DNA of 64,000 nucleotides from Escherichia phage BF17. Every line of letters begins with the position of its first letter. Positions within the stretch are counted from its first letter, which is position 1. Made by a program: the position numbers and the translations under genes. The stretch lies in sequence record MW822008.1; one strand, written 5' to 3'. Of the stretch, positions 30,781 through 61,127 are shown one piece after another. Below the pieces are notes generated by a model. The model had not been told where the DNA came from. It did not search any database and worked only from the letters and a program-made list of their open reading frames with translations.

Positions 30781-31293
30781 ATGACAGTTCCTTATGTTAA
30801 AATTATTAATAATATCCTTGATTCGTGGGAAGATGTTATTACTGGTAAAAAGAACCCAATGCCAGTACACGCACTAACCGGAAGACTACAATTCAGAATG
30901 TCAAACCAAACTGAAACTTTTAATAATCATGATGTTCACATTACTATAACACCTGTACGTATTGTAATTAAAAAAAATCAAGATGATGAATTGACATTAT
31001 CTATTGGTAGTGATAAAATCATTTTAAGTAATTTATCCGAAGAAGAATTCTTTCAACGAAGTACTATCATCGACATGAAAGATTTCACATATGAATCATT
31101 GGTTGAACTCAATACACGTTTCAACGATATTCAGGAACGATTGCGACCAATCCTCCGCAAAGAAGAAGAAGCCTGGAATGAAAGTGTGAGAAAGATGCAA
31201 GAAATGTTGAAAGAAAATATTAACAATCTGGGTAAAGCTACAATGGAATTTGGTAAAACTTTAAAACTGAACTTTTCAAAGGATCGTAAATGA
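30781..31293 (+). CDS. family-A paralog
   Basis: SEEEFFQRSTIID. Confidence 0.6.
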   Translation: MTVPYVKIINNILDSWEDVITGKKNPMPVHALTGRLQFRMSNQTETFNNHDVHITITPVRIVIKKNQDDELTLSIGSDKIILSNLSEEEFFQRSTIIDMKDFTYESLVELNTRFNDIQERLRPILRKEEEAWNESVRKMQEMLKENINNLGKATMEFGKTLKLNFSKDRK

Positions 31294-31745
31294 AAATTGA
31301 TAATTTGATTCATGTCTTAGGGACTTTACATAAAATATTATTACATCTTAACGAGATGAATAAACTAGGTTATAATGTCCATAATGTATTTGAACCTACA
31401 TTTAAATATAACTCAATCACTGGAGATGGTAATTACATAATCGAATATACATATGAAACCGATCCAGACTTCTATCCTCTTACGTTGAGAATTTATCCAA
31501 CAAATCCGATAGGAATTCACGACATATCATCAATTTCACTTGATCCAGATGGTGAAACGAGTATTGAATACAATAATGATTCAAAACCAGAATTTTACAT
31601 TGATGACATTAAAAAGTTGTTCAATGATGAATATGTTTTCCAACAAAGTACTGTGCATGATGTTGGTAGTACTACTGGGCAATTTTGGAATACATGTTAT
31701 TATCATATGATTGAAATTTGTAAATTACTAAAAGGTGTTGAATAA
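31290..31745 (+). CDS. family-A paralog
   Basis: NDEYVFQQSTVHD. Confidence 0.6.
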   Translation: MKIDNLIHVLGTLHKILLHLNEMNKLGYNVHNVFEPTFKYNSITGDGNYIIEYTYETDPDFYPLTLRIYPTNPIGIHDISSISLDPDGETSIEYNNDSKPEFYIDDIKKLFNDEYVFQQSTVHDVGSTTGQFWNTCYYHMIEICKLLKGVE

Positions 31746-32128
31746 TGAAATACTGCATTGAAGTACATTACACTACAGGTGATACTGAAAATTGTTATGA
31801 CGTTCTTAATACAATTGATATTCAATGGTCTTCTAAAGAGGAAGCAGTTGCTGCTTTACAGTGCCTAAAAGAGCATTGGGTGTTTTATATGAAGCAAGAT
31901 AATTGCTATACAAAAGAACACGAAACGATCATGGAAAATGCTAAACAAAAAGAGTGGTTTGACCCAATATCACCAGAATATTCATTCTTGGTTAAAGTTG
32001 GCGATGTGACTGTTCCATTACGAACACCGTGGAACGGCTACTTTGAAACGCTTCATAATGCACGAGTTGTCGCTGTTGATAACCCTGAACAAATCGATTT
32101 CGATTCATTGGACTGGAAAAAACTATGA
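31745..32128 (+). CDS. hypothetical protein
   Basis: ORF track. Confidence 0.5.
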   Translation: MKYCIEVHYTTGDTENCYDVLNTIDIQWSSKEEAVAALQCLKEHWVFYMKQDNCYTKEHETIMENAKQKEWFDPISPEYSFLVKVGDVTVPLRTPWNGYFETLHNARVVAVDNPEQIDFDSLDWKKL

Positions 32129-32568
32129 CAGTACTGCACCGATTGAAGAAGGTTAAGCATCCAGTTGTATATGAGGACTGGAAACGACAGAAGTTGCTGG
32201 GTGATTTTTATTACCCAAAATCTAAAGTTCTTGCGAATTCAAGATGTACATATTTCAAACATAATGATAAAGATACAGTATTTGTTGAAATGGGTTTCAA
32301 TCCATCAAATACAATGTTCAGCACTAACCAAACATTTTACAAATTTCATATCCAAAAAGATTCATTTTCTATCATGATTTTAAAACTTTTAGTTGAAGAT
32401 CTGCTATACCGTGGTGAACGTGTTCCTTTATCATTAGTGGATATTCCTTATAATAATTTAGAGGAAATGTACTTCCAACAGTTGACAGTACAAGAAAACT
32501 TCGGTATGATAGGACTTCAAGAGTTAGAGATGATTAAGCAAATTCGTGATATCTACTTTAAGGAGTAA
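32125..32568 (+). CDS. family-A paralog
   Basis: LEEMYFQQLTVQE. Confidence 0.55.
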   Translation: MTVLHRLKKVKHPVVYEDWKRQKLLGDFYYPKSKVLANSRCTYFKHNDKDTVFVEMGFNPSNTMFSTNQTFYKFHIQKDSFSIMILKLLVEDLLYRGERVPLSLVDIPYNNLEEMYFQQLTVQENFGMIGLQELEMIKQIRDIYFKE

Positions 32569-32570
32569 CT

Positions 32571-32714
32571 ATGCCAGTACGTAACAGTACTTCACGCTTT
32601 ACGCTTCAACAGAAAGCAGATCTTTTGAATATGGCAAACAAAGATTCTAATTTTCACTATCTAGTACTCGGTGGTTCAGTTGAAAAGATTGACCTACGTG
32701 AGTGTATGAAATAA
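32571..32714 (+). CDS. small ORF (47 aa), hypothetical
   Basis: Own translation; RBS aaggag upstream; below ORF-track cutoff. Confidence 0.35.
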   Translation: MPVRNSTSRFTLQQKADLLNMANKDSNFHYLVLGGSVEKIDLRECMK

Positions 32715-32727
32715 CAAAGGGGATAAA

Positions 32728-32898
32728 ATGAGCCTACGTGAATCATGGGAACAATTTAAAGAAGAGATTGGTTATCGTGGTGTTAAGATTGAACCAATCA
32801 ATCGTACTGAAAGCATCAAAGCTAGTACTAATGGCACTACCTATGATCGTTATGATGAAAAGTATGGTTTACATTCTAAACCAAAGGATACTGAATAA
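32728..32898 (+). CDS. small ORF (56 aa), hypothetical
   Basis: Own translation; RBS aggggataaa upstream. Confidence 0.35.
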   Translation: MSLRESWEQFKEEIGYRGVKIEPINRTESIKASTNGTTYDRYDEKYGLHSKPKDTE

Positions 32899-33037
32899 TG
32901 GTGTATACTAACATTTTTACTGGTATTATGCGTAAGTTTGTTAATGGTATTGGATATGTATCCAATGACAACGGTAGTACATGGGTAAAAAATAATACGT
33001 CAGAATCTTTAGTGAAAAGTCTTCCGTATTATAAAGC

Positions 33038-33066
33038 TTGACACATGAAAATGGAGTATGTATAAT
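33038..33066 (+). promoter_or_regulatory. sigma70-like early promoter
   Basis: ttgaca 33038-33043, 17-nt spacer, tataat 33061-33066. Confidence 0.6.
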
Positions 33067-33098
33067 ACTCCTATATTAATCAAATGAGGATATACGAA

Positions 33099-33671
33099 AT
33101 GGCTGGTGTTGATAAAATTTGTGAATTCAGTGGCGATTATGAAGGTTACGAAATGTACAAGTCCAAGCGTAATCACATTCAAGTTCTGTCAAAGTACCGT
33201 AAAGAATTCCGAGGACACAAAGCAACATTGTATGTTTTTGAGAATGGATATTCTGAAGTTTTCACAAGTGGTGGGTATAGTACAGCTAACATGGCACATA
33301 TCAACCCAAACCCAACTGAAGATGATTGGAATAGTGGTAACGCTTTTCGTATTTCAATTTTGAATAAAATGAATCGTTACGACCGTTATTGTACATTCTT
33401 TGAAAATATTTCAGAATACAAGCAAGCATTAAAGAAATATAATCAACGCTTACTAATGAATTATGATTACATTCTTCATGTTCCTACTGTTCCAGGTCAG
33501 GTTAATGGTCTGTATACGAACAGTACACATGATTTAACTGCGGTGAAGCGTCGCCTCAAACGTATGTTGGGTTGTGGTAATTTAACAATCAAGGTTATGC
33601 GTAATGAATCAATGTATAACTTTTTAAATGTACTACACTACACATTGAAGGATAATAATGGAAACGATTAA
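33099..33671 (+). CDS. hypothetical protein
   Basis: ATG 33099 preferred; ORF-track ATG 33084 sits inside the likely RBS (tgagga). Confidence 0.5.
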   Translation: MAGVDKICEFSGDYEGYEMYKSKRNHIQVLSKYRKEFRGHKATLYVFENGYSEVFTSGGYSTANMAHINPNPTEDDWNSGNAFRISILNKMNRYDRYCTFFENISEYKQALKKYNQRLLMNYDYILHVPTVPGQVNGLYTNSTHDLTAVKRRLKRMLGCGNLTIKVMRNESMYNFLNVLHYTLKDNNGND

Positions 33672-33855
33672 GTTTATGTTTGAGGTGTTTGTTGCATTCA
33701 TCTTATGTGCTGTATCTATTGCTATTGCTTTAATCCCAGTAATCGTTTACCAAGTTAATGGTGGTACAGACCCAACAGTTGATCTGTTTCTTCGTTGCGT
33801 GGGATTCTGCATATGGTTGGCGATGTTTATGTACTATATGCATCGTGAGGATTGA
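33658..33855 (+). CDS. small membrane protein
   Basis: Two hydrophobic helices. Confidence 0.5.
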   Translation: METIKFMFEVFVAFILCAVSIAIALIPVIVYQVNGGTDPTVDLFLRCVGFCIWLAMFMYYMHRED

Positions 33856-34688
33856 TTATGTCATTGGAAAAAGTAATTATTTCTGAATTCCGAAAGTACA
33901 TCATTGATTGTGATAGAGATATACAGCGTAAGTTCAATGAGTATCTTGACAAATATCCATATTTGATGTTTAATCCATTTGAAACTCAATCCGATGTTAA
34001 TCTTGGATTTTACATTGGGTTTACACAACGAATTCTACAACAATATGAGATGAAACAGCCAGAGGTTTGGGTAGAAACTGATTCGAATGAGACGAATGTT
34101 TTTTATCTGTACTCTTATTATGCTGAAATTGTTAGTTCAATGACGCTAGAAGGGTATCTATTCGTCAAAACATCTGATATTGAAAAAATATACATAGAAC
34201 CTGTATCTTTGGATATGGTTGCCCAGCTTCCAACAGTCCAATATTTGGATGCAAATGAGTTGACATATTCGGTGTTTGAGTACCTTAACCGAGACGATTT
34301 AACTCAAGAAATTGAGAATATGGTTTCAAAATATACCACAACTCTTATATCTAATGGTTCACTTAGAATAGAACTGATTTACGACGATACTAGTACTAAT
34401 GCAGTACGAGGAACTCGAATTGGAAAAGTTACTATACGTGTTGTCCACAATGATGTAGTACTTGGTTATATTTCGAAACGTGGTCATGACTTGTGTTTGA
34501 TTAACACATATGTTATTGAACGAAAAGAATGGAACGATTTAATGCAAAAAATCGTAGACGGAAGTGGAATTCGTGATATAATGTGTAATGAGGTAGTGAC
34601 GATGAATCCTGACATTGACTGTGATGTATATTTCCCAGTTCCTGGATTTACTCTACGTAATTTTGGTACATTAAAGGGTACAAAATGA
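33852..34688 (+). CDS. hypothetical protein
   Basis: ORF track; ATGA overlap. Confidence 0.55.
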   Translation: MIMSLEKVIISEFRKYIIDCDRDIQRKFNEYLDKYPYLMFNPFETQSDVNLGFYIGFTQRILQQYEMKQPEVWVETDSNETNVFYLYSYYAEIVSSMTLEGYLFVKTSDIEKIYIEPVSLDMVAQLPTVQYLDANELTYSVFEYLNRDDLTQEIENMVSKYTTTLISNGSLRIELIYDDTSTNAVRGTRIGKVTIRVVHNDVVLGYISKRGHDLCLINTYVIERKEWNDLMQKIVDGSGIRDIMCNEVVTMNPDIDCDVYFPVPGFTLRNFGTLKGTK

Positions 34689-34975
34689 AAATTTTAGAAG
34701 TCTTACTTGAAAAGGATGCATCCGGCACTCTTTATGTTGGTAATGAGTTCAGTCCTGATCCAATTGATATGATGCAGCGTATTCAAACACTGACCCAATC
34801 AATTTCAGTTAAACAACCTTTCCTAAAAGAATTGGAAATTCACTGCGATAAAGATATGGAACAACATGATAATGTTATTTCTGATATCAAAAGTCTATTG
34901 ACAAAGAATGGATATGTGGAGTATAATCCTTCTATCGTAATCGTTATCCCTGACTTTATGAAAGGAACATTGTAA
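34685..34975 (+). CDS. hypothetical protein
   Basis: ORF track. Confidence 0.5.
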   Translation: MKILEVLLEKDASGTLYVGNEFSPDPIDMMQRIQTLTQSISVKQPFLKELEIHCDKDMEQHDNVISDIKSLLTKNGYVEYNPSIVIVIPDFMKGTL

Positions 34976-35244
34976 TGACTAAAGAAGAAATGAAATCTCG
35001 CCTAAGCGAACTTAAGAAAGAACGAAAACTAGTCCGTTTGGACTGGGACATTCTTAACAAAAAAGATGAGCAATCATATGCTAACTGGAGTTCCGATAAA
35101 GTTCGCAATGACCGTTCCAAAGAAGACGCTAAACAGTTTATGGCATTGACCAAACGTTTATCTTCACTGAATAGTGAAATTACAGGTCTTCAAAAGGAAA
35201 TTATTTCAATTCTTCAAGTGGAGATCAACTCACTGTATGAATAA
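34975..35244 (+). CDS. coiled-coil small protein
   Basis: ORF track. Confidence 0.5.
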   Translation: MTKEEMKSRLSELKKERKLVRLDWDILNKKDEQSYANWSSDKVRNDRSKEDAKQFMALTKRLSSLNSEITGLQKEIISILQVEINSLYE

Positions 35245-35530
35245 ACATGAAGTGATTCATTTTGATGGTAAGATTTATGTACCAAACAATGATAGTACTG
35301 AATCTTATTATCTAATCAATGCAATTATGTCAGAAACACAAACATGTTGCCGTCAGCGTCCAGGTGAGTATGAGTTCAGTCAGACCATTGGTTATTATCG
35401 TTATACTGAACTTGATAAATTTACAATCGATTCTAAAAAAGTTATTGACGTTCTCACGAAGAACGGATATAATGAATCCGAATCAAACGAAACAGAGTTA
35501 CCAGTCGTGAAATTTGTTCTAAAAAAATAA
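35237..35530 (+). CDS. hypothetical protein
   Basis: In-frame ATG 35237 overlapping upstream stop; ORF-track start 35174 rejected. Confidence 0.45.
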   Translation: MNKHEVIHFDGKIYVPNNDSTESYYLINAIMSETQTCCRQRPGEYEFSQTIGYYRYTELDKFTIDSKKVIDVLTKNGYNESESNETELPVVKFVLKK

Positions 35531-35651
35531 TTAATTTTTGGGACAACGCTGAAAAGCATGATATAATGTATATTATCGGCAGATGTAAAAATGCAAACCA
35601 TTCCTCAATGATGAGGGTTTTTCATAAAAAAGAAATAAAAGGGTATTAAAA

Positions 35652-35861
35652 ATGGCTAAAGAAACTAACGCACAAGTACTAGATATCACCGACTTCGACC
35701 GCACTGTGAACTACATTCAGTTCCAGATTCATCAAGCTGAAGAAGCTCTCGCAGTATTCCACGGTACTGGTGCAAGGCCAATCCGTTTTGCTCATCTAAT
35801 TGCATGGAAGAAAAGTCTACAAGAAGAACTTTCTGAACTGCGTAAAGCAAACCGTAAGTAA
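35652..35861 (+). CDS. hypothetical small protein
   Basis: ORF track. Confidence 0.5.
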   Translation: MAKETNAQVLDITDFDRTVNYIQFQIHQAEEALAVFHGTGARPIRFAHLIAWKKSLQEELSELRKANRK

Positions 35862-35868
35862 TTGATTT

Positions 35869-35899
35869 CCCGCCTCATCAATGTTGATGGGGCTTTTTT
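35869..35899 (+). terminator. rho-independent terminator
   Basis: cccgcctcatcaatgttgatggggc plus TTTTTT. Confidence 0.6.
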
Positions 35900-35926
35900 A
35901 ATAAAATACAAACTGAGGATATATTA

Positions 35927-36433
35927 ATGAGTGTTGAATATTGGTTTTTGTTTATATGTCTTGGTACACTAGTACTGATTACATTGGGCTTAATCTTCAA
36001 TACGGTAATCAGTGGTAGTAATTACTTCAAGTCCTTTCAACTTCTAATGTCAGCTATGCAGTACAGTGACGAGGCAGAAGAAACCACTACGTTGATTTTG
36101 AATAAACTTGAAGCTAACTTACTGGTTGCTAAAATTTCTTCGTGTAATACAAATATTGTATTTTATGCATCACCCGTGGACATTAATGGGTACGAAATGA
36201 GTTACCAGCCAGCCGTTGCTGAAATTTTTATTGGTTCTAAGTATTATGCATATGGATATATCCGAAAGTATTATACTGAAGCAAAAGCCGAGCTAACAAA
36301 GAAACGACCGTCAATTAAGACATTAAAGCGTATCATCGCACTAGAAAAGAAACTACGAGGTGATGTGACAAAAAATGATTCACCCACTGTAGTAAATACA
36401 AAGAAAAAAAATAACGTAGTGGAGTTGGATTAA
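35927..36433 (+). CDS. membrane-anchored hypothetical protein
   Basis: N-terminal TM helix; RBS gagga. Confidence 0.55.
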   Translation: MSVEYWFLFICLGTLVLITLGLIFNTVISGSNYFKSFQLLMSAMQYSDEAEETTTLILNKLEANLLVAKISSCNTNIVFYASPVDINGYEMSYQPAVAEIFIGSKYYAYGYIRKYYTEAKAELTKKRPSIKTLKRIIALEKKLRGDVTKNDSPTVVNTKKKNNVVELD

Positions 36434-36738
36434 TGGACGCAGATAAATCAAACAGTATTCTTATTGATGTACAAACGAAGTTATTAGATGTTATGGAAAT
36501 CATCAAAGATTTACCACAAGGATATCAGTTTAAAGTTCGTGAAATGTTATCTTGTGCAGAAACGGTTGTGTCTATGTACAATGATGTGCAGCATGGAATT
36601 ATCCCTGAAATTCTTCAAGATGGTCTAAATATTAACACAAAGATTCCAGCACAAGAGCCTGAAGAGGTTGTTCAGCCTGAACCAGAACCTCCTATACGTA
36701 AAGTACTGGATCTGTCTGGCATCAAAATTAACATCTAA
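36433..36738 (+). CDS. hypothetical protein
   Basis: ORF track. Confidence 0.5.
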   Translation: MDADKSNSILIDVQTKLLDVMEIIKDLPQGYQFKVREMLSCAETVVSMYNDVQHGIIPEILQDGLNINTKIPAQEPEEVVQPEPEPPIRKVLDLSGIKINI

Positions 36739-36760
36739 AATACATTCAATAGGAGAAGTA

Positions 36761-36910
36761 ATGAGTAATCAAAAAATCGACTTAGTAGTAAAACTTCAAG
36801 AGATTCAAGCACTAGCTAAAGAACTTGATGAAAAACGTGCAGCAGCAGTTGATTCACTGTGTGCAACAATTCTGACTGTTTTTGCAGATTACGAAAAGAA
36901 ATCTGATTAA
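36761..36910 (+). CDS. small hypothetical protein (49 aa)
   Basis: ATG 36761 with RBS aggag; ORF-track 36668 start overlaps upstream gene. Confidence 0.4.
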   Translation: MSNQKIDLVVKLQEIQALAKELDEKRAAAVDSLCATILTVFADYEKKSD

Positions 36911-36921
36911 ACATTACTTTA

Positions 36922-36949
36922 TACCCAGTCTAGTACTGGGTATTTTTTT
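36922..36949 (+). terminator. rho-independent terminator
   Basis: tacccagtctagtactgggta plus TTTTTTT. Confidence 0.7.
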
Positions 36950-36960
36950 AAGGAAATAAA

Positions 36961-37353
36961 ATGACTGAATCAGAACTACATGAAATGATAGATTTCATTT
37001 ATGAAATGATACAAGATAAAAATAACATCAATACAATTATTTCTGGTCCAAGACAAATTGGTAATCAAATGACATATTCTTTATCTTTATGGATAAAACA
37101 GAACTACAAAGTTGATTGTTTGTATTTCCGTCCTGATATTGATGCTTATTATTTTGTCAATCATGATGCATTAATGAAACCAAATAAGCGTCCAGTTGAT
37201 GATACCTTTGTGACACACCCATTTTACCTGGCTGATTCCGAAGAAGATGAGTTTCAAAAGAACACAACGTTAAGCCCAGGTGAAATTTGCATCCCTTACA
37301 CACTAAAAGATAAAATGATTTACATCACAGAAGTTATGAAAACATGCTGGTAA
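36961..37353 (+). CDS. family-A paralog (divergent)
   Basis: SEEDEFQKNTTLS. Confidence 0.5.
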   Translation: MTESELHEMIDFIYEMIQDKNNINTIISGPRQIGNQMTYSLSLWIKQNYKVDCLYFRPDIDAYYFVNHDALMKPNKRPVDDTFVTHPFYLADSEEDEFQKNTTLSPGEICIPYTLKDKMIYITEVMKTCW

Positions 37354-37401
37354 GTGCAATGAAACTCTGATATAATACAAATAATGATAATAGGAGGATA
37401 T

Positions 37402-37620
37402 ATGAAATTTATTAATTTTGATATTTCTAAGGTCAAAGAATTATTTGTAAGAAATGCAGTTTATGATATCATGTTACATAACGGTACTGTACAAGAAGAT
37501 GTTGTATTGTTTTCGTTTGATGGTGAAAATCTCGAAACTATATATAAATTCAGCAACTTAGATGGTGACTTTTGGGAAACCAGTGCTGTTAAAATGTATA
37601 GAATTAAAAAGGAGCATTAA
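37402..37620 (+). CDS. hypothetical small protein
   Basis: ATG 37402 with RBS aggagg. Confidence 0.5.
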   Translation: MKFINFDISKVKELFVRNAVYDIMLHNGTVQEDVVLFSFDGENLETIYKFSNLDGDFWETSAVKMYRIKKEH

Positions 37621-37621
37621 T

Positions 37622-38110
37622 ATGCCAATTCGTGGTGTACCAGAACCATTAATGGAAGTTATTAAGCATGTTCGCATTGGAGATCGAGAAGTTAATCTTC
37701 GCCGTAATAACATTTTTTACTTTAAAACTTCAGAAATGAGTTCTGTACAGATTGTCATTGGTACATCTATTAAGATTACTCGTGTACTTGATGGTAGTAC
37801 TGACTTCGTTGAATATAATGTACTTACTAATAAAGTAACGCATATATATAAATGGAGTGGGTATAAAACTATTAAGTATGAATTTGACTTAGCTAGAACT
37901 GAAGAAGAACGATTTATGCTGAGTACTATCAATCCAGCAAACTATCCTGACCTTGATGCATTTTTGCTAATTTTAAAATTGTATAATGAAGCAAATCAGA
38001 AAGCCAAAGATTATGATAGAATCATGTATGAACGCCGAAAAGAACGTGCACAAAAAAGTTATGATCTGTATGATAGCCCATACGTGAAATATAGTAAGGG
38101 GTCGAAATGA
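37622..38110 (+). CDS. family-A paralog
   Basis: TEEERFMLSTINP; ATG 37622 with RBS aaggag preferred over 37562. Confidence 0.55.
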   Translation: MPIRGVPEPLMEVIKHVRIGDREVNLRRNNIFYFKTSEMSSVQIVIGTSIKITRVLDGSTDFVEYNVLTNKVTHIYKWSGYKTIKYEFDLARTEEERFMLSTINPANYPDLDAFLLILKLYNEANQKAKDYDRIMYERRKERAQKSYDLYDSPYVKYSKGSK

Positions 38111-38511
38111 ATAAAGAAGTTCAAATTATCATAACTCCACCTATACAAAGTCTGGATGTATCCATTAGTGATTTTTTGGAAAAATACTATGAATGGTTTA
38201 ATGAAGATTCAGTAATTTATAACCATTCATTACCTGATGGTTTCGTTGAGCTTATTGAATTAAATGCCAAATCACTATACTTCTGTGTTGAATACAATGA
38301 TTATATGACAGATGAAGCATATCGTTTTCGTTGTACATTGTATCCTAACCATTTTTCCATTGGTTATAAAGACTATCAGTACTGCACCACAAACTATAGT
38401 GTAGAGGAAGAATTTCAGTACAATTTACTTTATCCTGATTTAGATTATACGATTGCAGTACTGTTGACTAAAATCATGGATTTTTATAAAGATAAATATA
38501 ATGCAGCCTAA
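38107..38511 (+). CDS. family-A paralog (divergent)
   Basis: VEEEFQYNLLYPD. Confidence 0.5.
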   Translation: MNKEVQIIITPPIQSLDVSISDFLEKYYEWFNEDSVIYNHSLPDGFVELIELNAKSLYFCVEYNDYMTDEAYRFRCTLYPNHFSIGYKDYQYCTTNYSVEEEFQYNLLYPDLDYTIAVLLTKIMDFYKDKYNAA

Positions 38512-38686
38512 GACATTTGATGAGTGGTTTAATCTACACTATAATATAAATGCAGCAGATATATACTATTTTAAGCTTGAATTGTATATATCATTGCGTA
38601 ACCCAATTGAGTACTATAACAACATTATCAATTGTGATGATTTTGGTACATATTTTAGTATAGCAGTCATGGACAAAATAAGATGA
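38501..38686 (+). CDS. hypothetical small protein
   Basis: ORF track. Confidence 0.4.
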   Translation: MQPKTFDEWFNLHYNINAADIYYFKLELYISLRNPIEYYNNIINCDDFGTYFSIAVMDKIR

Positions 38687-38853
38687 CACACAAAGAATGG
38701 TTAGATGAACTAAAATTTAAACATAATCCTTTTGGTTTTGGTATACGCCAAGGTCATTATGATGTGTTAAAAGATAAACAACTTTTCAAATCATTTGTAC
38801 TTGATGAGGATAGTAATCACTGGTACATCTATGAGCTTGCAATTAGGAAATAG
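38683..38853 (+). CDS. MTHEEWM mini-protein family member (56 aa)
   Basis: Own translation MTHKEWLDELKFKHNPFGFG..., similar to the 40188-40674 triplet. Confidence 0.5.
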   Translation: MTHKEWLDELKFKHNPFGFGIRQGHYDVLKDKQLFKSFVLDEDSNHWYIYELAIRK

Positions 38854-38863
38854 AAGATATAGT

Positions 38864-39213
<350 letters not shown>

Positions 39214-39226
39214 CGAGGAATCCAAA

Positions 39227-39424
39227 GTGACTAAAGCAGAACTTGTAGCATTATTGGAATCATATCCCGATGATGCATGTATTGAAGTTGTTCATAGTGC
39301 GAGACATTTTGACATTGAAGATGTAGTACGTTATAATGATAAAGGTGTACTCATCATGGAACTATGTATTGGTGAAATGAAAACTGTACCCGAATCAGAA
39401 AAACGTAAAAATAGTAAACCGTAA
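39227..39424 (+). CDS. hypothetical small protein (GTG start)
   Basis: ORF track; RBS gagga. Confidence 0.45.
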   Translation: MTKAELVALLESYPDDACIEVVHSARHFDIEDVVRYNDKGVLIMELCIGEMKTVPESEKRKNSKP

Positions 39425-39434
39425 GGAAAATAAA

Positions 39435-39653
39435 ATGGAATCTACTCTATTAGAAGTTATTAACTCATTAAACGCTGGCGACAATGTTCAAGTACTCCTT
39501 CAGGGATACCGTGTAAAAGGTTCAGTAGTTTTAGTTAATGATACCACTGTTGTTGTAACTGAAACTAACCCGTTTGACAGTAATGAACTTGCTAATATCC
39601 ATATTGATATTAAAAGTATTATTGGTGTTGGTGTAACTAAACCACAAGAATAA
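39435..39653 (+). CDS. hypothetical small protein
   Basis: ORF track; RBS aaggaaaa. Confidence 0.5.
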   Translation: MESTLLEVINSLNAGDNVQVLLQGYRVKGSVVLVNDTTVVVTETNPFDSNELANIHIDIKSIIGVGVTKPQE

Positions 39654-39674
39654 CAATTGTTATTGGGGATTACT

Positions 39675-39947
39675 ATGCATTTTGAAAAATTCAATACAAA
39701 TCGTAACACACGCATTGACGTTCTTTATGAAACACAAGACTCAATAAGCATTCGTACACGTAGTGGTGATGTATATCATGACTGTACTATTGGTTGGGAA
39801 CAGGGAAGAACACGTAGTGCAGAATTCGATAACTATCGCTTCTACCAAGGGGACACCACAATCTGGCCTGAAGACGTAGAAGATATTGCGTTTGAAGATG
39901 AACATAAAGATGAATTTATAAAATTTAATCCCAAAACCGAATCATAA
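39675..39947 (+). CDS. hypothetical small protein
   Basis: ATG 39675 preferred over ORF-track 39657. Confidence 0.45.
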   Translation: MHFEKFNTNRNTRIDVLYETQDSISIRTRSGDVYHDCTIGWEQGRTRSAEFDNYRFYQGDTTIWPEDVEDIAFEDEHKDEFIKFNPKTES

Positions 39948-39964
39948 ATATTGGAACAGACTAT

Positions 39965-40080
<116 letters not shown>

Positions 40081-40084
40081 AAAT

Positions 40085-40170
<86 letters not shown>

Positions 40171-40187
40171 CAATTAAAGGTTAAACC

Positions 40188-40348
<161 letters not shown>

Positions 40349-40352
<4 letters not shown>

Positions 40353-40509
40353 CACATGAAGAATGGATGAATGACATTAATTTTAGATATTCGGGTATCG
40401 GTAAATGGCTAAAGTATCATTGGGAATTCATTTCAGAGCCACATCTGTATGATAAACTTATCAACGATCCAGCATATGAAATGTACTTAATTGAACTACT
40501 GGTACGAAT

Positions 40510-40513
<4 letters not shown>
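40349..40513 (+). CDS. MTHEEWM mini-protein, copy 2 (54 aa)
   Basis: Own translation MTHEEWMNDINFRYSGIGKWLKYHWEFISEPHLYDKLINDPAYEMYLIELLVRI; ATGA overlaps. Confidence 0.55.
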
Positions 40514-40681
<168 letters not shown>

Positions 40682-40682
40682 G

Positions 40683-41136
<454 letters not shown>

Positions 41137-41164
41137 GTATCTTAACAACAGAAGGTATATTGAA

Positions 41165-41404
41165 ATGGGTAAGTATTTTGTGAGTTATAGTTATAATGTA
41201 TCACGAAAGATTCCACGTGGTGACGGAATGGGATGGTCTTATGATGCATATACTTTAAATGAGTCATGTATCATCGAATTACAAGAAAAAGACCTTGACA
41301 TTTTAAAAATCAAACAATATATTCTTGATGTTGAATTGGCACATCGTACTGATACCTATCCAGATGTAAACAACATCAGCATCTTAGTACTAACCAAAGT
41401 ATAA
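41165..41404 (+). CDS. hypothetical small protein
   Basis: ATG 41165 downstream of promoter; ORF-track 41135 start lies in promoter. Confidence 0.45.
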   Translation: MGKYFVSYSYNVSRKIPRGDGMGWSYDAYTLNESCIIELQEKDLDILKIKQYILDVELAHRTDTYPDVNNISILVLTKV

Positions 41405-41483
41405 GATAAAAAGAACTTTACTAAATAATTCCACTGGAGATTAATATGTTTAAAGATGAACGTCCAGATTTGTAAAAAGTACT

Positions 41484-41511
41484 TGAATAAATAATTCAGT
41501 ACTGATATAAT
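41484..41511 (+). promoter_or_regulatory. early promoter with CAGTACTG, heading an ORF-poor region
   Basis: ttgaat 41484-41489, cagtactg, extended -10 tgatataat 41503-41511. Confidence 0.5.
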
Positions 41512-41519
41512 GAATTCCA

Positions 41520-41870
41520 CAATCAGACGTATATGGTGTAAGTTACGTCGATGTAATCCAGAACAAGATCTCTGGTACTCTAGGAAGTGGTGAATGTTAA
41601 CCTAGACGGGTTTGATAATTGGACGATAGGCAATTATTACTTGACTAGCAGGTTTAAACTAGAGGTGACCGTCCTTCACCAAACTGGAAAACCGGATGGA
41701 CTTTTATTTAAAAGGGTAAGGCGTGGAAATATGTTTACAGAAGTTGCTTTTAGTAGCCTGTACGCCCCACGTCAAGGTAGTCGAAAGGTAAGTTAAAACG
41801 GGTGGTTATAAAGCTGAATTAACAGCGGCGTTTAAAAGCGTCACCATCCATTTTTTTTTAATTAAAGTTG
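41520..41870 (+). ncRNA. candidate structured non-coding RNA (unclassified)
   Basis: About 350 nt after a promoter with no ATG-initiated ORF of 60 aa or more and no RBS; ends near a T8 run. Confidence 0.3.
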
Positions 41871-41875
41871 GTGAT

Positions 41876-42685
<810 letters not shown>

Positions 42686-42709
42686 ACGAAATTACAATAG
42701 GAAATTAAA

Positions 42710-42895
42710 ATGCAACTTTTAATTCTTTCAATATTGTATATTATTATAATGGTTCCGATATCAATACGTTTAATTACAGTTGAACGATTTTTATCGAAAC
42801 ATGGAAATAGATCTATGATCTTTGTACCAATCGGGTTGATATTGTTTGGTATATTTTCATTTATAATGGGAATTAACGCTACATTCATTTCATAG
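42710..42895 (+). CDS. small membrane protein
   Basis: Two TM helices; RBS aggaaa. Confidence 0.45.
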   Translation: MQLLILSILYIIIMVPISIRLITVERFLSKHGNRSMIFVPIGLILFGIFSFIMGINATFIS

Positions 42896-42904
42896 GAAAC
42901 AAAT

Positions 42905-43435
<531 letters not shown>

Positions 43436-43480
43436 GATTCCCGATTCAGTAGCTTATAAAGCAGTTCCGTGTGTGCCTAT

Positions 43481-43533
<53 letters not shown>

Positions 43534-43534
43534 T

Positions 43535-43572
<38 letters not shown>

Positions 43573-43591
43573 AGAGGTACTTCGAGTATGC

Positions 43592-43658
<67 letters not shown>

Positions 43659-43733
43659 TAATTGACATATCATTGAATGGGGTGTATTATGGTTCAAGAA
43701 GAAAACTGGGGTTTTTAACCTAACGAGGTCATT

Positions 43734-43876
<143 letters not shown>

Positions 43877-43917
43877 AATGCGAAAGAGTATAGAGACTTG
43901 TTGGTTATCTTACTTCT

Positions 43918-44000
<83 letters not shown>

Positions 44001-44003
44001 TCA

Positions 44004-44076
<73 letters not shown>

Positions 44077-44093
44077 CAAAATAAAGGTACACT

Positions 44094-44510
44094 ATGAAAT
44101 ACAACATTGTCAAAATGGTGAACTACGTATTAAAAAACAACGCATGGTCACTGCATGATGTACAATTAGAAGATATTGGTGAAGTTAGAGTTTTTTGCTA
44201 TGATGGCGATTTGAACGAAACCACTGATTTGAGTAAATGTTTTAATATTTTTCTTGGTTATGAAATCAATAATCATTTTTATTCATTTGATGTGTATTTT
44301 GAACGAGTTAAAATCAGAATTGCTAATGTAAATAGTGATTATTATGACACTAGAATTGAATTGAATTTTGACGATATTGATACTGAAGAAAAATTCTTTC
44401 AGTACTGTCTCGTAAACGATCCAAATGGATTGACATTTGAGGACATTAAAGCTATACTTATAGTTCAAAGATTAATTCCAGAAGAGGTTATAAATCCCTT
44501 TAATGACTAG
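44094..44510 (+). CDS. family-A paralog
   Basis: TEEKFFQYCLVND. Confidence 0.6.
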   Translation: MKYNIVKMVNYVLKNNAWSLHDVQLEDIGEVRVFCYDGDLNETTDLSKCFNIFLGYEINNHFYSFDVYFERVKIRIANVNSDYYDTRIELNFDDIDTEEKFFQYCLVNDPNGLTFEDIKAILIVQRLIPEEVINPFND

Positions 44511-44862
44511 TTTAATAACTCGTATAATGCAAGATGTTCGTAAGAATCTTAATACTGGTAATTTTGATGATCCTAACATAAAAATATTATGTTATGATGG
44601 ATTCACCCTAGTACATCCATCAGAATCTAATAATTTATACATAGTATATACTTCTCCTAATCTTTTGTATCGATTTGATTTATATACTACAATGGCTAAG
44701 ATAACATTAGGTGTTTCTAAGGAGCCAATTTTTATAGCAGTACGTGATTTTGAGTACACAGAAGAGTCATTATTCCAGTACTCAATGGTAAATGACATTG
44801 GTGACTTGACATTAGAAGAGATAAATGTTATAGTTGGTATGTGTCGTTTGATTAATCCATAA
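44503..44862 (+). CDS. family-A paralog
   Basis: TEESLFQYSMVND. Confidence 0.6.
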   Translation: MTSLITRIMQDVRKNLNTGNFDDPNIKILCYDGFTLVHPSESNNLYIVYTSPNLLYRFDLYTTMAKITLGVSKEPIFIAVRDFEYTEESLFQYSMVNDIGDLTLEEINVIVGMCRLINP

Positions 44863-45590: not shown

Positions 45591-46007
45591 ATGAATAAAG
45601 AAGTTATTAGTTTAATGGATGAGTATATCAACCAAACATATCGTTTTATATTTTTTAATGCATTTGAGTCCAGAACAACGTATTATTCTGGTGAATATGA
45701 GATAATAACTGGATCATTTCTTAACGGATACATGGAGTTTTTAGAACAAAGCGATAATGTGTTCATTTCCATATCTGAAAAACATGGTAATGATTATGTT
45801 ATTGATATGTGGCCTAATAAAGTAGAGATTGATACCACGCACAAAATCGTAATTGATGTGGATGAATCGTTGTATGATTTAACTGAAGATATGTACATGC
45901 AACTAAATTTCGTATACGATCTAACTAACATAAGTTATTCTAATCTAAGTAAATTATTTTATATTTGTGGTGTACTACATAAAAACGTACAACAAAATAA
46001 AGGATAA
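45591..46007 (+). CDS. family-A paralog (divergent)
   Basis: TEDMYMQLNFVYD; ATG 45591 used because ORF-track start 45531 is upstream of a terminator hairpin. Confidence 0.5.
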   Translation: MNKEVISLMDEYINQTYRFIFFNAFESRTTYYSGEYEIITGSFLNGYMEFLEQSDNVFISISEKHGNDYVIDMWPNKVEIDTTHKIVIDVDESLYDLTEDMYMQLNFVYDLTNISYSNLSKLFYICGVLHKNVQQNKG

Positions 46008-46079
46008 ACATTTAAATGTTGACAATTTACAACATAAATGGTATCTTTGAAATTGCCAGAACCCTACGAGGAAGATGAT

Positions 46080-46487
46080 ATGGTCAAAATTTTAAGTGAC
46101 AATGCAGTTGATATTGTCATTGATGTACTTGAAAACAGTAATACATTTGAGAAGAAACACAGTACTGTATACTTCGGTAAAGATTGCTGGTTGAGCTATA
46201 TATCTGATAAATCGTTTGTAATTCGTGTTGAAACGGGTGATATTGGATTTACGGTACATGCGGCACATACCAAAACTGATAAACAAATCACTGTTATTGC
46301 TGACACGCCAAGTATCTGGGATAGAATTGATGATTGTGAACACTACACGTCAACATTCTATGATACAGAAGAAGAACATTTCATGGATAGTACTGTTAAA
46401 GAATTAGCTATTCCATTTAAACTTATGAAAGCAGCAAGAGATTTTATTTTAAAATACAAAAAAATAGGAGTTGATGATGCAATTTAA
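46080..46487 (+). CDS. family-A paralog
   Basis: TEEEHFMDSTVKE; ATG 46080 with RBS gagga preferred over 46038. Confidence 0.55.
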   Translation: MVKILSDNAVDIVIDVLENSNTFEKKHSTVYFGKDCWLSYISDKSFVIRVETGDIGFTVHAAHTKTDKQITVIADTPSIWDRIDDCEHYTSTFYDTEEEHFMDSTVKELAIPFKLMKAARDFILKYKKIGVDDAI

Positions 46488-46923
46488 TGGTAAGGTTTCT
46501 AAAGTAGGTTTAGTTTTTGAAAATTGTGAGTTCATTGAGATTGATGTAAAGAATGTTTTATGGATGCATATTGCTGACGAGAAAACTCTTTGTAGTCGTT
46601 TTTCCAACGGTCTAACTATTAGTACTGGTATTGGTGAGTTCGGTATTGCATTGCGTAGTGATACACCATCGGATTTCATGGATAACTCTACACTGTTAGA
46701 CCGTTTAAAAATGCGTGATGTTACACACGTTTATCTTTATGATACTAATGGTGTTGAACAGCGTTATGTAGTTGAATGGGCTAATTATAACCTTAGTGAT
46801 CAATATTCAGTAAACCAGCGTGTTCAACTCACCCCTGGTGGTAATATTGTGTTTGTTAGTTCAACTGGTAAATTAATCAGTGTAGATGATGAAAGTATCG
46901 ATCTATTCACTTCATATAACTAA
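46471..46923 (+). CDS. hypothetical protein (possible distant family-A relative)
   Basis: Contains SDFMDNSTLLD, weaker version of the motif. Confidence 0.5.
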   Translation: MMMQFNGKVSKVGLVFENCEFIEIDVKNVLWMHIADEKTLCSRFSNGLTISTGIGEFGIALRSDTPSDFMDNSTLLDRLKMRDVTHVYLYDTNGVEQRYVVEWANYNLSDQYSVNQRVQLTPGGNIVFVSSTGKLISVDDESIDLFTSYN

Positions 46924-46934: not shown

Positions 46935-47354
46935 ATGAAAACAATCAAAACACATTTCAAAGATACATGGACAGAAGTAAGTACTGGTAATATTCAAGAT
47001 ATTTTATACAGTACTGAAACTATTCATGTCTATGACGAAGAGACAGCAGCGGAGCAGTTAAAGGTATTGCATCGTAGTGTAGGTGAACACACCGAGTACG
47101 GTGTTAAACATACTCGTGAATTGGTAAGTACTGATCATATTGACACCTGTACTGTAAATCTATCAAAAGAAGAAATGTTTGATTTTATTCTAAACAATAC
47201 TTTAATAATTCATCCAGATGGATCACTATACAGTAAAACAGATGGTACACAAGTTCATAAAAAGTACAATGTGACCATCAATGATACGGTGATGTCTGGA
47301 TATGATTTAGTTGATGCAATCAACGAGTACGTTTCTATGCAGAGGTTGAAATGA
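46935..47354 (+). CDS. hypothetical protein
   Basis: ORF track. Confidence 0.5.
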   Translation: MKTIKTHFKDTWTEVSTGNIQDILYSTETIHVYDEETAAEQLKVLHRSVGEHTEYGVKHTRELVSTDHIDTCTVNLSKEEMFDFILNNTLIIHPDGSLYSKTDGTQVHKKYNVTINDTVMSGYDLVDAINEYVSMQRLK

Positions 47355-57873: not shown

Positions 57874-57887
57874 TTAGAGGATATATC

Positions 57888-58070: not shown

Positions 58071-58079
58071 GGGTAAAGT

Positions 58080-58280: not shown

Positions 58281-58377
58281 GGATGCAACATGACTTTAGA
58301 GATTGTCTTTGGTATTGTTAGCTTAGTCGTCTGTGTGGGTTGGTTTGGGTATCTGATGATTTTTGGTGATTAATACT

Positions 58378-58405
58378 TGACATAAGATATCAGTACTGTA
58401 TAATG
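58378..58405 (+). promoter_or_regulatory. early promoter with CAGTACTG
   Basis: ttgaca 58378-58383, cagtactg, tataat 58400-58405. Confidence 0.6.
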
Positions 58406-58449
58406 TTTATATCAAACGACACCCACTTTAACAAATAATAGGAAATATT

Positions 58450-58728: not shown

Positions 58729-58754
58729 CTGTACTGAATAATAGCAGTATAATG
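58726..58754 (+). promoter_or_regulatory. early promoter followed by leader hairpin
   Basis: ttgact 58726-58731, tataat 58749-58754; downstream ggaatgcagtg...cactgcgtttcc hairpin before gene 58847. Confidence 0.5.
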
Positions 58755-58846
58755 TTTATATCAAAGGGAATGCAGTGAAAGGAAAGACAGCATAATCGTA
58801 CTCGTCACTGCGTTTCCACCCTTTTAAATTAAATGAGGAATTAACT

Positions 58847-59155
58847 ATGTTTCAAACTAACACTCAAGGTTTTGTAATCATCGATTTGAACCAAAACAGC
58901 GGTTATTGGATGAAACCTACTGACGCATGTATGCAGTTTGATTTTTTAGGTTACAGGATTAGTGTAAGTACTGGTGCTTCTGTACTGCGTGGTGGTTGTA
59001 TCGTTGAACATCTGGTAACTGATCCAGAAGGTCGTGAGTATGAAATCGCAGGTTCAGTACAAGATGCCATTATGTTTGTATGTCAGCGTGAAATGAATAG
59101 TTCGAATTCAAATGCACTGACTCATGCTCTTTCTCAAGAAGTGGAGGTTCGTTAA
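58847..59155 (+). CDS. hypothetical protein
   Basis: ORF track; RBS gagga. Confidence 0.5.
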   Translation: MFQTNTQGFVIIDLNQNSGYWMKPTDACMQFDFLGYRISVSTGASVLRGGCIVEHLVTDPEGREYEIAGSVQDAIMFVCQREMNSSNSNALTHALSQEVEVR

Positions 59156-59406
59156 TGAAATATATCGTAGCAGTACTCGTTGCATTTTTACTCACTGCAT
59201 GTGACGCTTCAACAAAAGAACGCACAAGTGATTTTATTCTCCCTATTGAATTACAAGAAGCAGGATGTAAGATTTATCGTATGCAAAAGGACGGTGCTGG
59301 TGTAACCTTGTATACAGTTTATTGCCCTAATGCAAATACCAGTACTGGATACAGCAGCGGTAAAACACGAATCAATACTTCAGTGATTAATGGAGTACAA
59401 CAATGA
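59155..59406 (+). CDS. putative lipoprotein
   Basis: Signal peptide with lipobox LLTAC. Confidence 0.5.
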   Translation: MKYIVAVLVAFLLTACDASTKERTSDFILPIELQEAGCKIYRMQKDGAGVTLYTVYCPNANTSTGYSSGKTRINTSVINGVQQ

Positions 59407-59771
59407 GCCTTGATACAACCCGTGCAACAGATTTATTAACTCGTATGAATAATGAAGAATTTCTTGCTGAAATAAAGTACAAGCTTGAAAAACTGGCACG
59501 AAGTGCTGAAGTAATTGAAGTTGAAGGTCACTTACCAATGGACCAATTCAATACGTTCAACGAAGATATGGTTTATTATCCAAATGAAATTTGGATTGAG
59601 TGGGAGTCATGGACTAACAAAACTCTACGCATTGAAGGTTATTGTGTGAATTATGAATCTGAACCTGGTGATGTTACAAAAACTCTCTCCATTTGGTGTA
59701 CAAAAACACATGAACTCGTTGAGGTGAATTTGAATTATATGAAAGGTTTCCGTTGGGGTGATGTTCAATGA
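59403..59771 (+). CDS. hypothetical protein
   Basis: ORF track. Confidence 0.5.
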   Translation: MSLDTTRATDLLTRMNNEEFLAEIKYKLEKLARSAEVIEVEGHLPMDQFNTFNEDMVYYPNEIWIEWESWTNKTLRIEGYCVNYESEPGDVTKTLSIWCTKTHELVEVNLNYMKGFRWGDVQ

Positions 59772-60043
59772 TTAAAAAACTATTGACAGTTGTCTTTGTA
59801 TTCTGTACAATGTTTCTTACAGCATGTAATGATGACGGCAGGTTTAGTGCAAAAGACTTAGTTCGTCAGGATTGTACATTCACAGGTAAGTCTTTTATTA
59901 ACGAGTATGAAATATGTACACAATCAGGTCGTATCTGTGGTGGTTGGGAAAAACGTCAGGAGCGATTGTATGTATATGAATGCCCTGGTCATCTCAACAA
60001 AGTACTAAGCACACACAAACTTGTTTATGATAAGGTTGAATAA
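59768..60043 (+). CDS. putative lipoprotein
   Basis: Signal peptide with lipobox FLTAC. Confidence 0.5.
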   Translation: MIKKLLTVVFVFCTMFLTACNDDGRFSAKDLVRQDCTFTGKSFINEYEICTQSGRICGGWEKRQERLYVYECPGHLNKVLSTHKLVYDKVE

Positions 60044-60258
60044 TGACTACCAATGAAATGATGCAGGTTATTTGGGATAAAGGTTGCGATCTTAAAATCA
60101 CCAGTACTGATGTTCGTGTATTCAAAACTGAATATATGGAGTACTTGGACCTTGATACTTATAATAATATTGTATCAATTGAACACAAAGGTGCAGTACT
60201 GGAAACAATTGACGTAGTACTGAAGAAAGCTACCGACCTATTAGGAGCGGCAGTGTGA
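60043..60258 (+). CDS. hypothetical small protein
   Basis: ORF track. Confidence 0.45.
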   Translation: MTTNEMMQVIWDKGCDLKITSTDVRVFKTEYMEYLDLDTYNNIVSIEHKGAVLETIDVVLKKATDLLGAAV

Positions 60259-60412
60259 ATAACAAAGAGTGGGAAGAGTACCGTAAGAAGTGCAGGGAGT
60301 TTGATAAAGAACTAACTGGTACAGTGAATGCAGTAATGTGGGTATCTGTAATTATTGCAGTTCTTGCGTTGGGTGCTATTATTATTAATAAATTATTCTA
60401 AGGCGAATATCA

Positions 60413-60612
60413 TGTTTACTTTATATCTCGCAGTAGTTCTCACCAATGGTGAAATCACTCGTACTATTGGTGAAGGTGTATATAAAACACCAGACCAGTG
60501 CTACTCTGCTACTCATTGGCCTCGCGATAGTGGGGATGAAACTCGCACTGAATTCAAATGCATGAAAGTAAAAGGTGATTTTGTTAACCTTAAGGTTATC
60601 GAGGCGAAATAA
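60413..60612 (+). CDS. hypothetical small protein
   Basis: ATG 60413 preferred over ORF-track TTG 60355. Confidence 0.4.
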
Positions 60613-61127
60613 TGGATATTAATGAGTTGTTGATCTTATTGTTTAATCGTGGAAATGATGTAAGACGTTCTGAATATCAAGACAAAATTCACATTGAAAC
60701 TGATAAATGTTATGGTAAAACAACTCATGAGATTTTGAAGCCAAATGGCAAACGATATGCCGATGTATGTTTTCATGAACGAAGTGATGGTAGTGAAATA
60801 ATCAGTACTGAAATTGTGTTTTATGATAGATCCTCGGCAGGTTCGTATGAAATAGAACTTATATATTGTCCTGGTTCAGAAACACACAATAAACGTCAGA
60901 TATTATATGATGTTTATTCACCTCCAGGTGTAGCTGAATATTTTGTTATTGATTACAGTACTGAAGAAAGTGTGTTTCAACAGAGCTTGATTCATAACTT
61001 CCAGTTGAATGATCCAAATGTACCAAAGTTGTTCAAACTACTCGATACTATCGATGTTGATTTTGAATTTGTTATGTGCATTAGAACTTCCTTGATCGAT
61101 GAATTTATGGAACTACTTAATATATGA
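60612..61127 (+). CDS. family-A paralog
   Basis: TEESVFQQSLIHN. Confidence 0.6.
   Translation: MDINELLILLFNRGNDVRRSEYQDKIHIETDKCYGKTTHEILKPNGKRYADVCFHERSDGSEIISTEIVFYDRSSAGSYEIELIYCPGSETHNKRQILYDVYSPPGVAEYFVIDYSTEESVFQQSLIHNFQLNDPNVPKLFKLLDTIDVDFEFVMCIRTSLIDEFMELLNI

Follow-up and report, generated by a model that had tools for sequence, protein, structure and literature searches.

A clade-wide family of small, divergent proteins encoded by Rak2-like jumbo phages

We analyzed a stretch of 64,000 nucleotides from Escherichia phage BF17 (MW822008.1), referred to here as the window, and found that it encodes 19 members of a single family of small proteins, or 20 if the open reading frame (ORF) at 38107 is counted. 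Members are designated by the first position of their ORF. These ORFs are part of a single multigene family, ancient and clade-specific, of the Rak2-like jumbo phages (Asteriusvirus and Alcyoneusvirus), each genome of which has approximately 35 to 40 copies, mainly in two blocks. A first-pass annotation had proposed that one paralog family recurs in the window with "20 or more members in 64 kb". The recurrence is borne out by profile tests, network analysis, and clean decoys; the count is 19 to 20, and the family as a whole is far larger, with 40 members in phage 121Q.

The source phage was assigned by megablast to Asteriusvirus, the 121Q/PBECO4-like group of Rak2-like E. coli jumbo phages with genomes of ~350 kb. 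Based on gene order, the window corresponds to approximately 33-97 kb of phage 121Q. Its G+C content is 35%, and the plus strand holds nearly all of the coding capacity. Using megablast, positions 24000-41134 were 99.4% identical to phage vB_Ec-M-J; a mosaic breakpoint lies within the tRNA region. A search for related loci in IMG/VR retrieved only 121Q itself. In Rak2-like jumbo phages, >70-80% of the genes are labelled "hypothetical" (PMC7247149, PMC13070987).

Identification of the family by profile methods

The family signature was defined as [ST]-E-E-x-[YFL]-F-Q-x-S-[TL]-[VI]-x-[DN] together with the helix that follows it. Scanning with a regular expression based on the motif selected 19 ORFs in the window, all on the plus strand. 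Alignment of these 19 revealed a common C-terminal block, t-E-E-x-x-F-Q-x-S-t-v-x-D, after which come a short loop and an amphipathic helix. The first-pass annotation had put forward an all-versus-all alignment as a check. Pairwise BLAST among the window ORFs joined almost no members, and it was profile methods, needed because the relationship is nearly invisible to BLAST, that united them.

Membership was evaluated using two leave-one-out procedures. In the window-only version, a hidden Markov model (HMM) of the C-terminal module was built from 18 members and run on all 976 six-frame ORFs of the window. The omitted member was the top non-training match in 18 of the 19 cases, with expectation values (E) ranging from 6e-11 to 1e-2; the sole failure was 36961 (E = 4.1). 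In the stricter version, the candidate and its 121Q ortholog were both removed from a training set of 57 family sequences drawn from two genomes. Under these conditions, 14 of the 19 members were recovered at E ≤ 1.3e-4 and 16 at E ≤ 0.012. The values for 27440 and 45591 were approximately 0.01, those for 32125, 37622, and 36961 were marginal (0.14-1.1), and that for 38107 was 0.58. Finally, pairwise comparison by hhalign of ortholog-group profiles from six phages yielded a connected core, with probabilities of 60-98%, to which 32125, 37622, and 38107 had no links. In scans with the iterated family HMM, no minus-strand ORF matched at E < 1e-3 and no reversed-sequence decoy matched at E < 0.3. 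One further protein, a metagenomic NHL-repeat protein of 405 amino acids (P0125) carrying FQDSTVEDPTGTS (FQDSTVEDP) in each repeat, scored against the module profile. This match was rejected as due to chance, indicating that the short motif has limits when used by itself.

The members and 38107 encode proteins of 100-200 amino acids, carry the module in the C-terminal third, and lie on the plus strand in an early-type region. The E values that follow are from the ortholog-excluded test unless stated otherwise. An upstream cluster, beyond the range considered in the first-pass annotation, contains 24999-25427 (3.5e-6; tied by hhalign, at 93-94%, to the 44094 and 45591 groups), 26192-26587 (4.5e-5), 26643-27053 (3.3e-8; 84-93% to five groups), 27440-27835 (6.6e-3; 66-78%), 27832-28287 (1.6e-7), and 28281-28736 (3.9e-6). 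The member at 27040-27459 (3.6e-10) probably starts at the ATG at 27055, matching the annotation of 121Q gp85. Farther along are 30781-31293 (9.8e-8; motif SEEEFFQRSTIID), which has a K/E-rich C-terminal extension, and 31290-31745 (1.3e-4; motif NDEYVFQQSTVHD). These are followed by 40743-41108 (1.4e-7), which sits between identical promoter cassettes, and 41876-42247 (4.5e-7). The member at 44094-44510 (2.6e-7), used for structural modelling, adjoins a relatively recent tandem paralog at 44503-44862 (3.6e-11): the two match by BLAST at E = 3e-9, and 44503 matches the 44094 group by hhalign at 98%. The remaining members are 45591-46007 (0.012; 84-94% to five groups), 46080-46487 (7.7e-5), and an isolated copy at 60612-61127 (8.2e-6).

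Three ORFs are probable members. That at 32125-32568 scored 9.8e-3 in the window-only test and 0.14 in the ortholog-excluded test, and its reciprocal-best ortholog in Klebsiella phage K64-1 matches the family HMM independently (E = 0.0024). The ORF at 36961-37353 (motif SEEDEFQKNTTLS) scored 1.1-4.1 in the leave-one-out tests and forms a sub-pair with 41876, to whose group, itself solid, it is tied by hhalign at 84%. The ORF at 37622-38110 (motif TEEERFMLSTINP), which has a basic C-terminal tail, scored 1.1e-3 in the window-only test and 0.28 in the ortholog-excluded test. In addition, 38107-38511, whose motif contains a one-residue deletion, is possibly a degenerate member (HMM E = 0.58-0.69). 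Its homolog in phage JNE01 matches the family HMM on its own (E = 0.0029), and its AlphaFold model has the family order of a helix, six strands, and two helices, but at low confidence, with a predicted local distance difference test score (pLDDT) of 58. Its orthologs fall into two clusters, too few for an independent alignment.

All 13 of the ORFs listed in the first-pass annotation, with their motifs, were found where it had placed them, and the start codons chosen at 37622, 45591, and 46080 are consistent with PHROG alignments. Nine of the 13 are solid members, of which eight (30781, 31290, 40743, 41876, 44094, 44503, 46080, and 60612) are strong, with E values of 4e-11 to 1e-4 in the ortholog-excluded test; three are probable, and 38107 is only possible. 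Two ORFs suggested as distant relatives were rejected: 46471-46923 (plus strand) had no HMM match, hhalign probabilities of 0-2% to all groups, and no Pfam match, while 46935-47354 (plus strand) had an HMM E of 51 and hhalign probabilities of 0-5%.

Distribution and age of the family

The entire 121Q genome was scanned with the iterated family HMM at a cut-off of E < 1e-3. This revealed 40 members, compared with 618 annotated features in the genome. Of these members, 20 lie at 58-95 kb, the block represented in the window, and 18 at 160-186 kb; the other two are isolated, at 132.8 and 255.5 kb. In the second block the core motif is even cleaner, as in SEEYYFQQSTVYD and TEEGYFQGSTVYE. In Klebsiella phage K64-1 (Alcyoneusvirus, 31.7% G+C), the family numbers 35 at E < 1e-2 and is likewise divided between two blocks; no decoy matched below E = 0.5 in that scan. 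Although K64-1 is of a different genus, 16 of the 121Q members could be paired with reciprocal-best, collinear orthologs there. Full-length orthologs of the 27040 protein, sharing 29.5% identity with it, occur in RaK2, K64-1, and related Klebsiella phages.

When the module profile was run against 1.84 billion representative proteins, 130 clusters (50% identity) matched at E ≤ 1e-3, nearly all of them of 100-200 amino acids and with the module in the C-terminal third. The named relatives in these clusters are each a "hypothetical protein" from an Asteriusvirus phage or an E. coli assembly. A search seeded with the family alignment gave almost only orthologs of the first sequence. Pfam yielded no match for 10 members even at E ≤ 1, a PDB sequence profile search with the family found nothing, and in PHROGs the members are spread over separate families of unknown function. 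Family proteins, at 120-180 amino acids, are soluble, lack hydrophobic segments, and are mostly acidic, with a median isoelectric point of 4.7 and net charges down to -24. Their genes are all on the plus strand and often occur in tandem runs, in which neighbors frequently overlap by 4-14 nt; these overlaps suggest translational coupling.

Within 121Q, BLAST detected no paralog at E < 1e-5 for 26 of the 40 members, and the two paralogs of the youngest pair share only 58% identity. The ratio of non-synonymous to synonymous substitution (omega), pooled over comparisons of window and 121Q orthologs, was 0.32 for the N-terminal part preceding the motif and 0.20 for the C-terminal module, a comparison that the first-pass annotation had called for. 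Both values indicate that the genes are functional and subject to purifying selection, which constrains the module more strongly. Based on the cross-genus orthologs, the scarcity of BLAST-detectable paralogs, and the purifying selection, the expansion is mostly ancient and maintained. Most paralog lineages predate the split between the Escherichia and Klebsiella phages, and recent copy-number turnover has been modest.

Six Asteriusvirus genomes display one-to-one synteny with limited turnover. Copy-number variation, which the first-pass annotation had proposed to look for in related phages, occurs at the 45.5-46.5 kb locus (45591-46487 of the window; 79497-80743 of 121Q). This locus holds two copies in the window, three in 121Q, UE-S1, ECO103 4-12-1, and TH47, and four in JNE01; the copy absent from the window phage is the middle one. 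In UE-S1, the 36961 ortholog is frameshifted and 41876 has been lost. In JNE01, three members have no detectable ortholog and there is one extra member. Members also diverge somewhat faster than their neighbors: their median identity to 121Q is 76% versus 86-88% (p = 0.003-0.02). The ongoing duplication and diversification that had been proposed is therefore not supported in that form: some turnover is real, but the family is mostly ancient, with 16 collinear K64-1 orthologs, and held under purifying selection, and does not represent a current burst of duplication. The protein encoded by 41876-42247 is 98% identical in JNE01 (locus L019, position 20708), whereas neighboring members are only 25-72% identical. 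This contrast suggests that the gene, which lies beside the promoter cassettes and tRNAs, was recently exchanged horizontally. The TH47 ortholog of 40743 is more diverged (84%) than its neighbors (~96%).

The density of the family in the window, 19-20 of approximately 106 non-overlapping ORFs of at least 80 codons, is high as described in the first-pass annotation, but is less unusual given that these genomes carry several other expansions (PMC5646251, PMC3622015). Other expansions in 121Q, at 117-131, 131-135, and 155-162 kb, comprise ~14 minus-strand genes of RCC1-like type as well as ORFs of 60-75 amino acids in long arrays.

Predicted structure

The 44094 protein was modelled using AlphaFold2 with an alignment consisting of only the 19 window paralogs. 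The model has a pLDDT of 85.6 and a predicted template modelling score of 0.78. Its elements are a helix (residues 4-15), six strands within residues 20-91, and helices at residues 98-107 and 115-125. Residues 98-107 correspond to the E-E-x-x-F-Q-x-x-L-V motif, preceded by a Thr N-cap. The predicted fold is therefore a single compact alpha/beta domain with an N-terminal helix, a six-stranded antiparallel meander sheet, and two C-terminal helices. The motif forms the first of these helices, with its N-cap, and in such a topology would pack against the sheet. The first-pass annotation had described a divergent N-terminal domain joined to a C-terminal module; the 44094 model does not bear out this division, as it comprises one domain. 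Outside the motif region the sequences have diverged past recognition by BLAST. Indeed, BLAST of the N-terminal parts joined only orthologs and two young paralog groups, and no N-terminal homology was found across the family, so for that part of the protein we relied on structure prediction.

Foldseek comparison of the model with BFVD identified its own ortholog and then several phage proteins of 13-16% identity, whose structures had been predicted independently and which aligned over the full length with template modelling (TM) scores of 0.5-0.63, as well as proteins of RaK2 and Pectobacterium phage CBB (TM 0.43-0.56). The nearest solved folds, 6szw and 1p32, were weak matches (E = 0.03-0.1, TM ~0.3). 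Like p32/gC1qBP/MAM33 (1P32, 7TE3, 3QV0, 3JV1), the modelled protein has an N-terminal helix, an antiparallel meander sheet, and two C-terminal helices, and both groups are strongly acidic. In contrast, the modelled phage protein has six strands to the seven of p32, and the family has no PF02330 sequence signal (Pfam, 10 members, E ≤ 1; empty PDB profile search). As judged from the model, the link to p32/MAM33 appears to be one of resemblance rather than membership.

Promoters, tRNAs, and repeated cassettes

Sigma-70 sites were defined as TTGACA-17-TATAAT with at most one mismatch. The window contains 28 such sites versus 1.8 expected, all on the plus strand; in 121Q they are concentrated at 40-120 and 140-160 kb. 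A short distance upstream of the first family cluster, two copies of the promoter sequence (T/G)TGACAATATTCGTAATACCTACTATAAT lie 78 bp from each other, at 23820-23848 and 23898-23926. Near-consensus sites also occur within the coding sequence of the C-module at 28681, 32482, 44430, and 44806, where, for example, TTGACA encodes the Leu-Thr of "LTFEDI". These intragenic sites may drive the next gene.

Family members flank the tRNA genes on both sides, as the first-pass annotation had noted. ARAGORN identified six tRNAs at 39991-44077, all on the plus strand: tRNA-Ser(tga) at 39991-40080, tRNA-Ser(gct) at 42279-42368, tRNA-Met(cat) and tRNA-Asn(gtt) at 42523-42678, and two tandem tRNA-Thr(tgt) 7 bp apart (43924-43997 and 44004-44077; together 43924-44077). 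In 121Q and UE-S1, a single tRNA-Thr is present at the corresponding position. The tRNA region of UE-S1 (locus L016, 19297-22000) and of JNE01 (locus L019, 21441-24085) also contains a 1.7-kb minus-strand ORF and an HNH homing endonuclease, neither of which is in the window.

The promoter cassettes that had been described as interleaved with the family are likewise present. A 43-nt sigma-70 promoter cassette lies directly upstream of 40743 (40683-40725), and a 100% identical copy lies directly downstream (41104-41146). Alignment revealed related copies at 41474-41516 and, upstream of a tRNA-Ser, at 42235-42285; all four are on the plus strand. The two identical cassettes hold a short inverted repeat. 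In T4-type phages, PeSL mobile regulatory cassettes consist of early promoter and stem-loop repeats around variable ORFs, and shuffle small ORFs. The cassettes of the window are reminiscent of these in that 40743, a small and variable gene, is bracketed by near-identical sigma-70 promoter repeats with an inverted repeat, which are found again elsewhere in the tRNA region. They differ in that just four copies were seen, and the likeness concerns the surroundings of the genes and not the protein family.

A second paralog family, of 54-56 amino acids starting with MTHEEW, is encoded at 38683-38853, 40188-40352, 40349-40513, and 40510-40674. Beside the tRNA-Ser, the last three are arranged in tandem with a unit of 161 bp; two of them are 70% identical.

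Possible roles of the family

The reading that best fits these data is that the family constitutes an early, non-virion battery of protein-binding factors for host takeover or anti-defence, built on one scaffold with variable surfaces; we consider it about evenly poised between right and wrong. According to this proposal, the genes would be transcribed early by the host RNA polymerase and the proteins would not be components of the virion. The conserved helix region would provide the common scaffold, and the variable sheet surface of each member would meet a different target. Such a battery of binders is favored by the shared scaffold helix, the paralog-specific surfaces conserved among orthologs, the small, acidic, and soluble nature of the proteins, the early-type promoters, and the lack of a virion label. 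Specifically, NC_025447.1, a record that marks proteins detected by mass spectrometry, gives no 121Q ortholog the label "virion structural protein". With regard to early expression, comparable grounds led the corresponding region of the related phage CBB to be read as early and concerned with host takeover (PMC5259590).

Several considerations weigh against this proposal. Pfam, the PDB sequence profile, and the PHROG function labels are all empty, giving no homology from which to read a function. Early expression is deduced from promoter consensus sequences only, and the second block of 121Q (160-186 kb) holds few such promoters. One member alone was modelled confidently, from an alignment of paralogs. 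Finally, the polar residues of the motif (E, E, Q, S, and D) are kept beyond the needs of a structural core, leaving room for a common binding partner.

The last point is the basis of an alternative in which the conserved C-terminal helices dock one shared partner, such as Clp/HslV-type machinery or a host hub protein, and the variable sheet recruits different targets. Such an arrangement would parallel the poxvirus families that join variable repeats to a conserved F-box/PRANC element. The polar residues are retained in >100 paralogs, while the remainder differs from one paralog to the next but is maintained among orthologs. Moreover, the 121Q record annotates potential machinery: a ClpA-like gp581, ClpP-like gp464 and gp473, an HslV-family gp475, and a ClpS-like gp48. 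However, these protease labels are putative, and that of ClpS is doubtful given that its homolog in the window (1246-1791) has no Pfam match. In addition, the motif is modelled as an integral helix of one domain rather than a separable tail, and we know of no docking motif of the form E-E-x-x-F-Q-x-S. We judge this alternative unlikely. A more specific version, in which ~40 substrate adaptors dock through the invariant helix on a shared machine, such as the ClpA/ClpP/HslV-like proteins of the phage, and each sheet captures a different host protein for destruction or sequestration, is more doubtful still. If true, such an adaptor set would be the phage counterpart of the F-box/PRANC strategy of eukaryotic viruses. 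The poxvirus ankyrin/PRANC proteins and the multigene families of giant viruses resemble the phage family in working principle only: they too combine many paralogs and a short, conserved C-terminal element with otherwise variable surfaces. They share no homology with it, and the phage element lies within a single small domain.

It is very unlikely that the proteins are minor virion or capsid-internal components for which the motif serves as a packaging target signal. 121Q displays a phiKZ-like bubbling pattern of an inner body, and such virions are rich in structural proteins (PMC5646251, PMC7247149). However, the record described above flags no 121Q ortholog as virion structural, and the genes lie among sigma-70 promoters, away from late-type promoters.

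The motif also resembles a cleavage site. The consensus for processing by proteases of the tobacco etch virus (TEV)/3C type is E-x-x-Y-x-Q, with cleavage before S or G, and many copies of the motif (EEGYFQGS, EEMYFQGS, or EEEYFQQS) agree with it, raising the prospect that the family proteins are cleaved at E-E-x-Y-F-Q-x-S. We consider this highly improbable. Proteases bind their substrates in an extended conformation, but the confident model places the motif in a helix; the 121Q annotation shows no 3C-like protease; and the P1′ position is highly variable, yet the residues beyond it (S-T/L-V/I-x-D) are conserved. The likeness to a TEV site is most likely coincidental.

Last and least credible is that the motif reflects a DNA-level repeat, such as a promoter or recombination cassette translated in frame, or a chance occurrence in AT-rich, Glu-rich ORFs; despite the sigma-70-like sites within C-module coding sequence noted above, this is refuted by the minus-strand and decoy scans, by codon usage, by the omega values well below 1, and by the invariable position of the motif in the C-terminal third of proteins of 100-200 amino acids. 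With respect to codon usage, the conserved Ser is encoded by AGY in 54 and TCN in 22 of 87 copies, Phe by TTT in 52 and TTC in 32, and Gln by CAG in 42 and CAA in 35. Such mixing of synonymous codons, including both Ser codon families, indicates selection on the protein and not on the DNA, and thus the intragenic sigma-70 sites are not the cause of the protein conservation.

Significance

The literature on these phages records abundant paralogs. We found no account of this family in the comparative paper on jumbo phages, in those on RaK2, CBB, phAPEC6, fEgEco12, and PA5oct, or in Hua 2017. The family is new, large, and clade-wide, but of a familiar category: multigene expansions in the accessory regions of jumbo phages. 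As in known jumbo-phage gene arrays, dozens of copies of one small protein occur in tandem runs in a poorly annotated, non-structural part of the genome. Unlike in those arrays, the copies described here are mostly <30% identical, are tied only by a motif of ~13 residues, and are not united by BLAST or PHROGs. An array in 121Q described as "very similar genes" (PMC5646251) is probably a different family.

Approximately 40 genes per genome (~6-7%) are hereby gathered into one family, which has a recognizable signature, a confident fold model, and orthologs across genera. That they had not been grouped illustrates how standard clustering by BLAST or PHROGs overlooks large, very divergent phage families. 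Isolation of Rak2-like jumbo phages is under way for therapeutic use against E. coli and Klebsiella. For these phages, the family supplies a delimited group of genes that may serve in early host takeover or anti-defence, and its invariant F-Q-x-S helix provides a handle for mutagenesis and partner screens.

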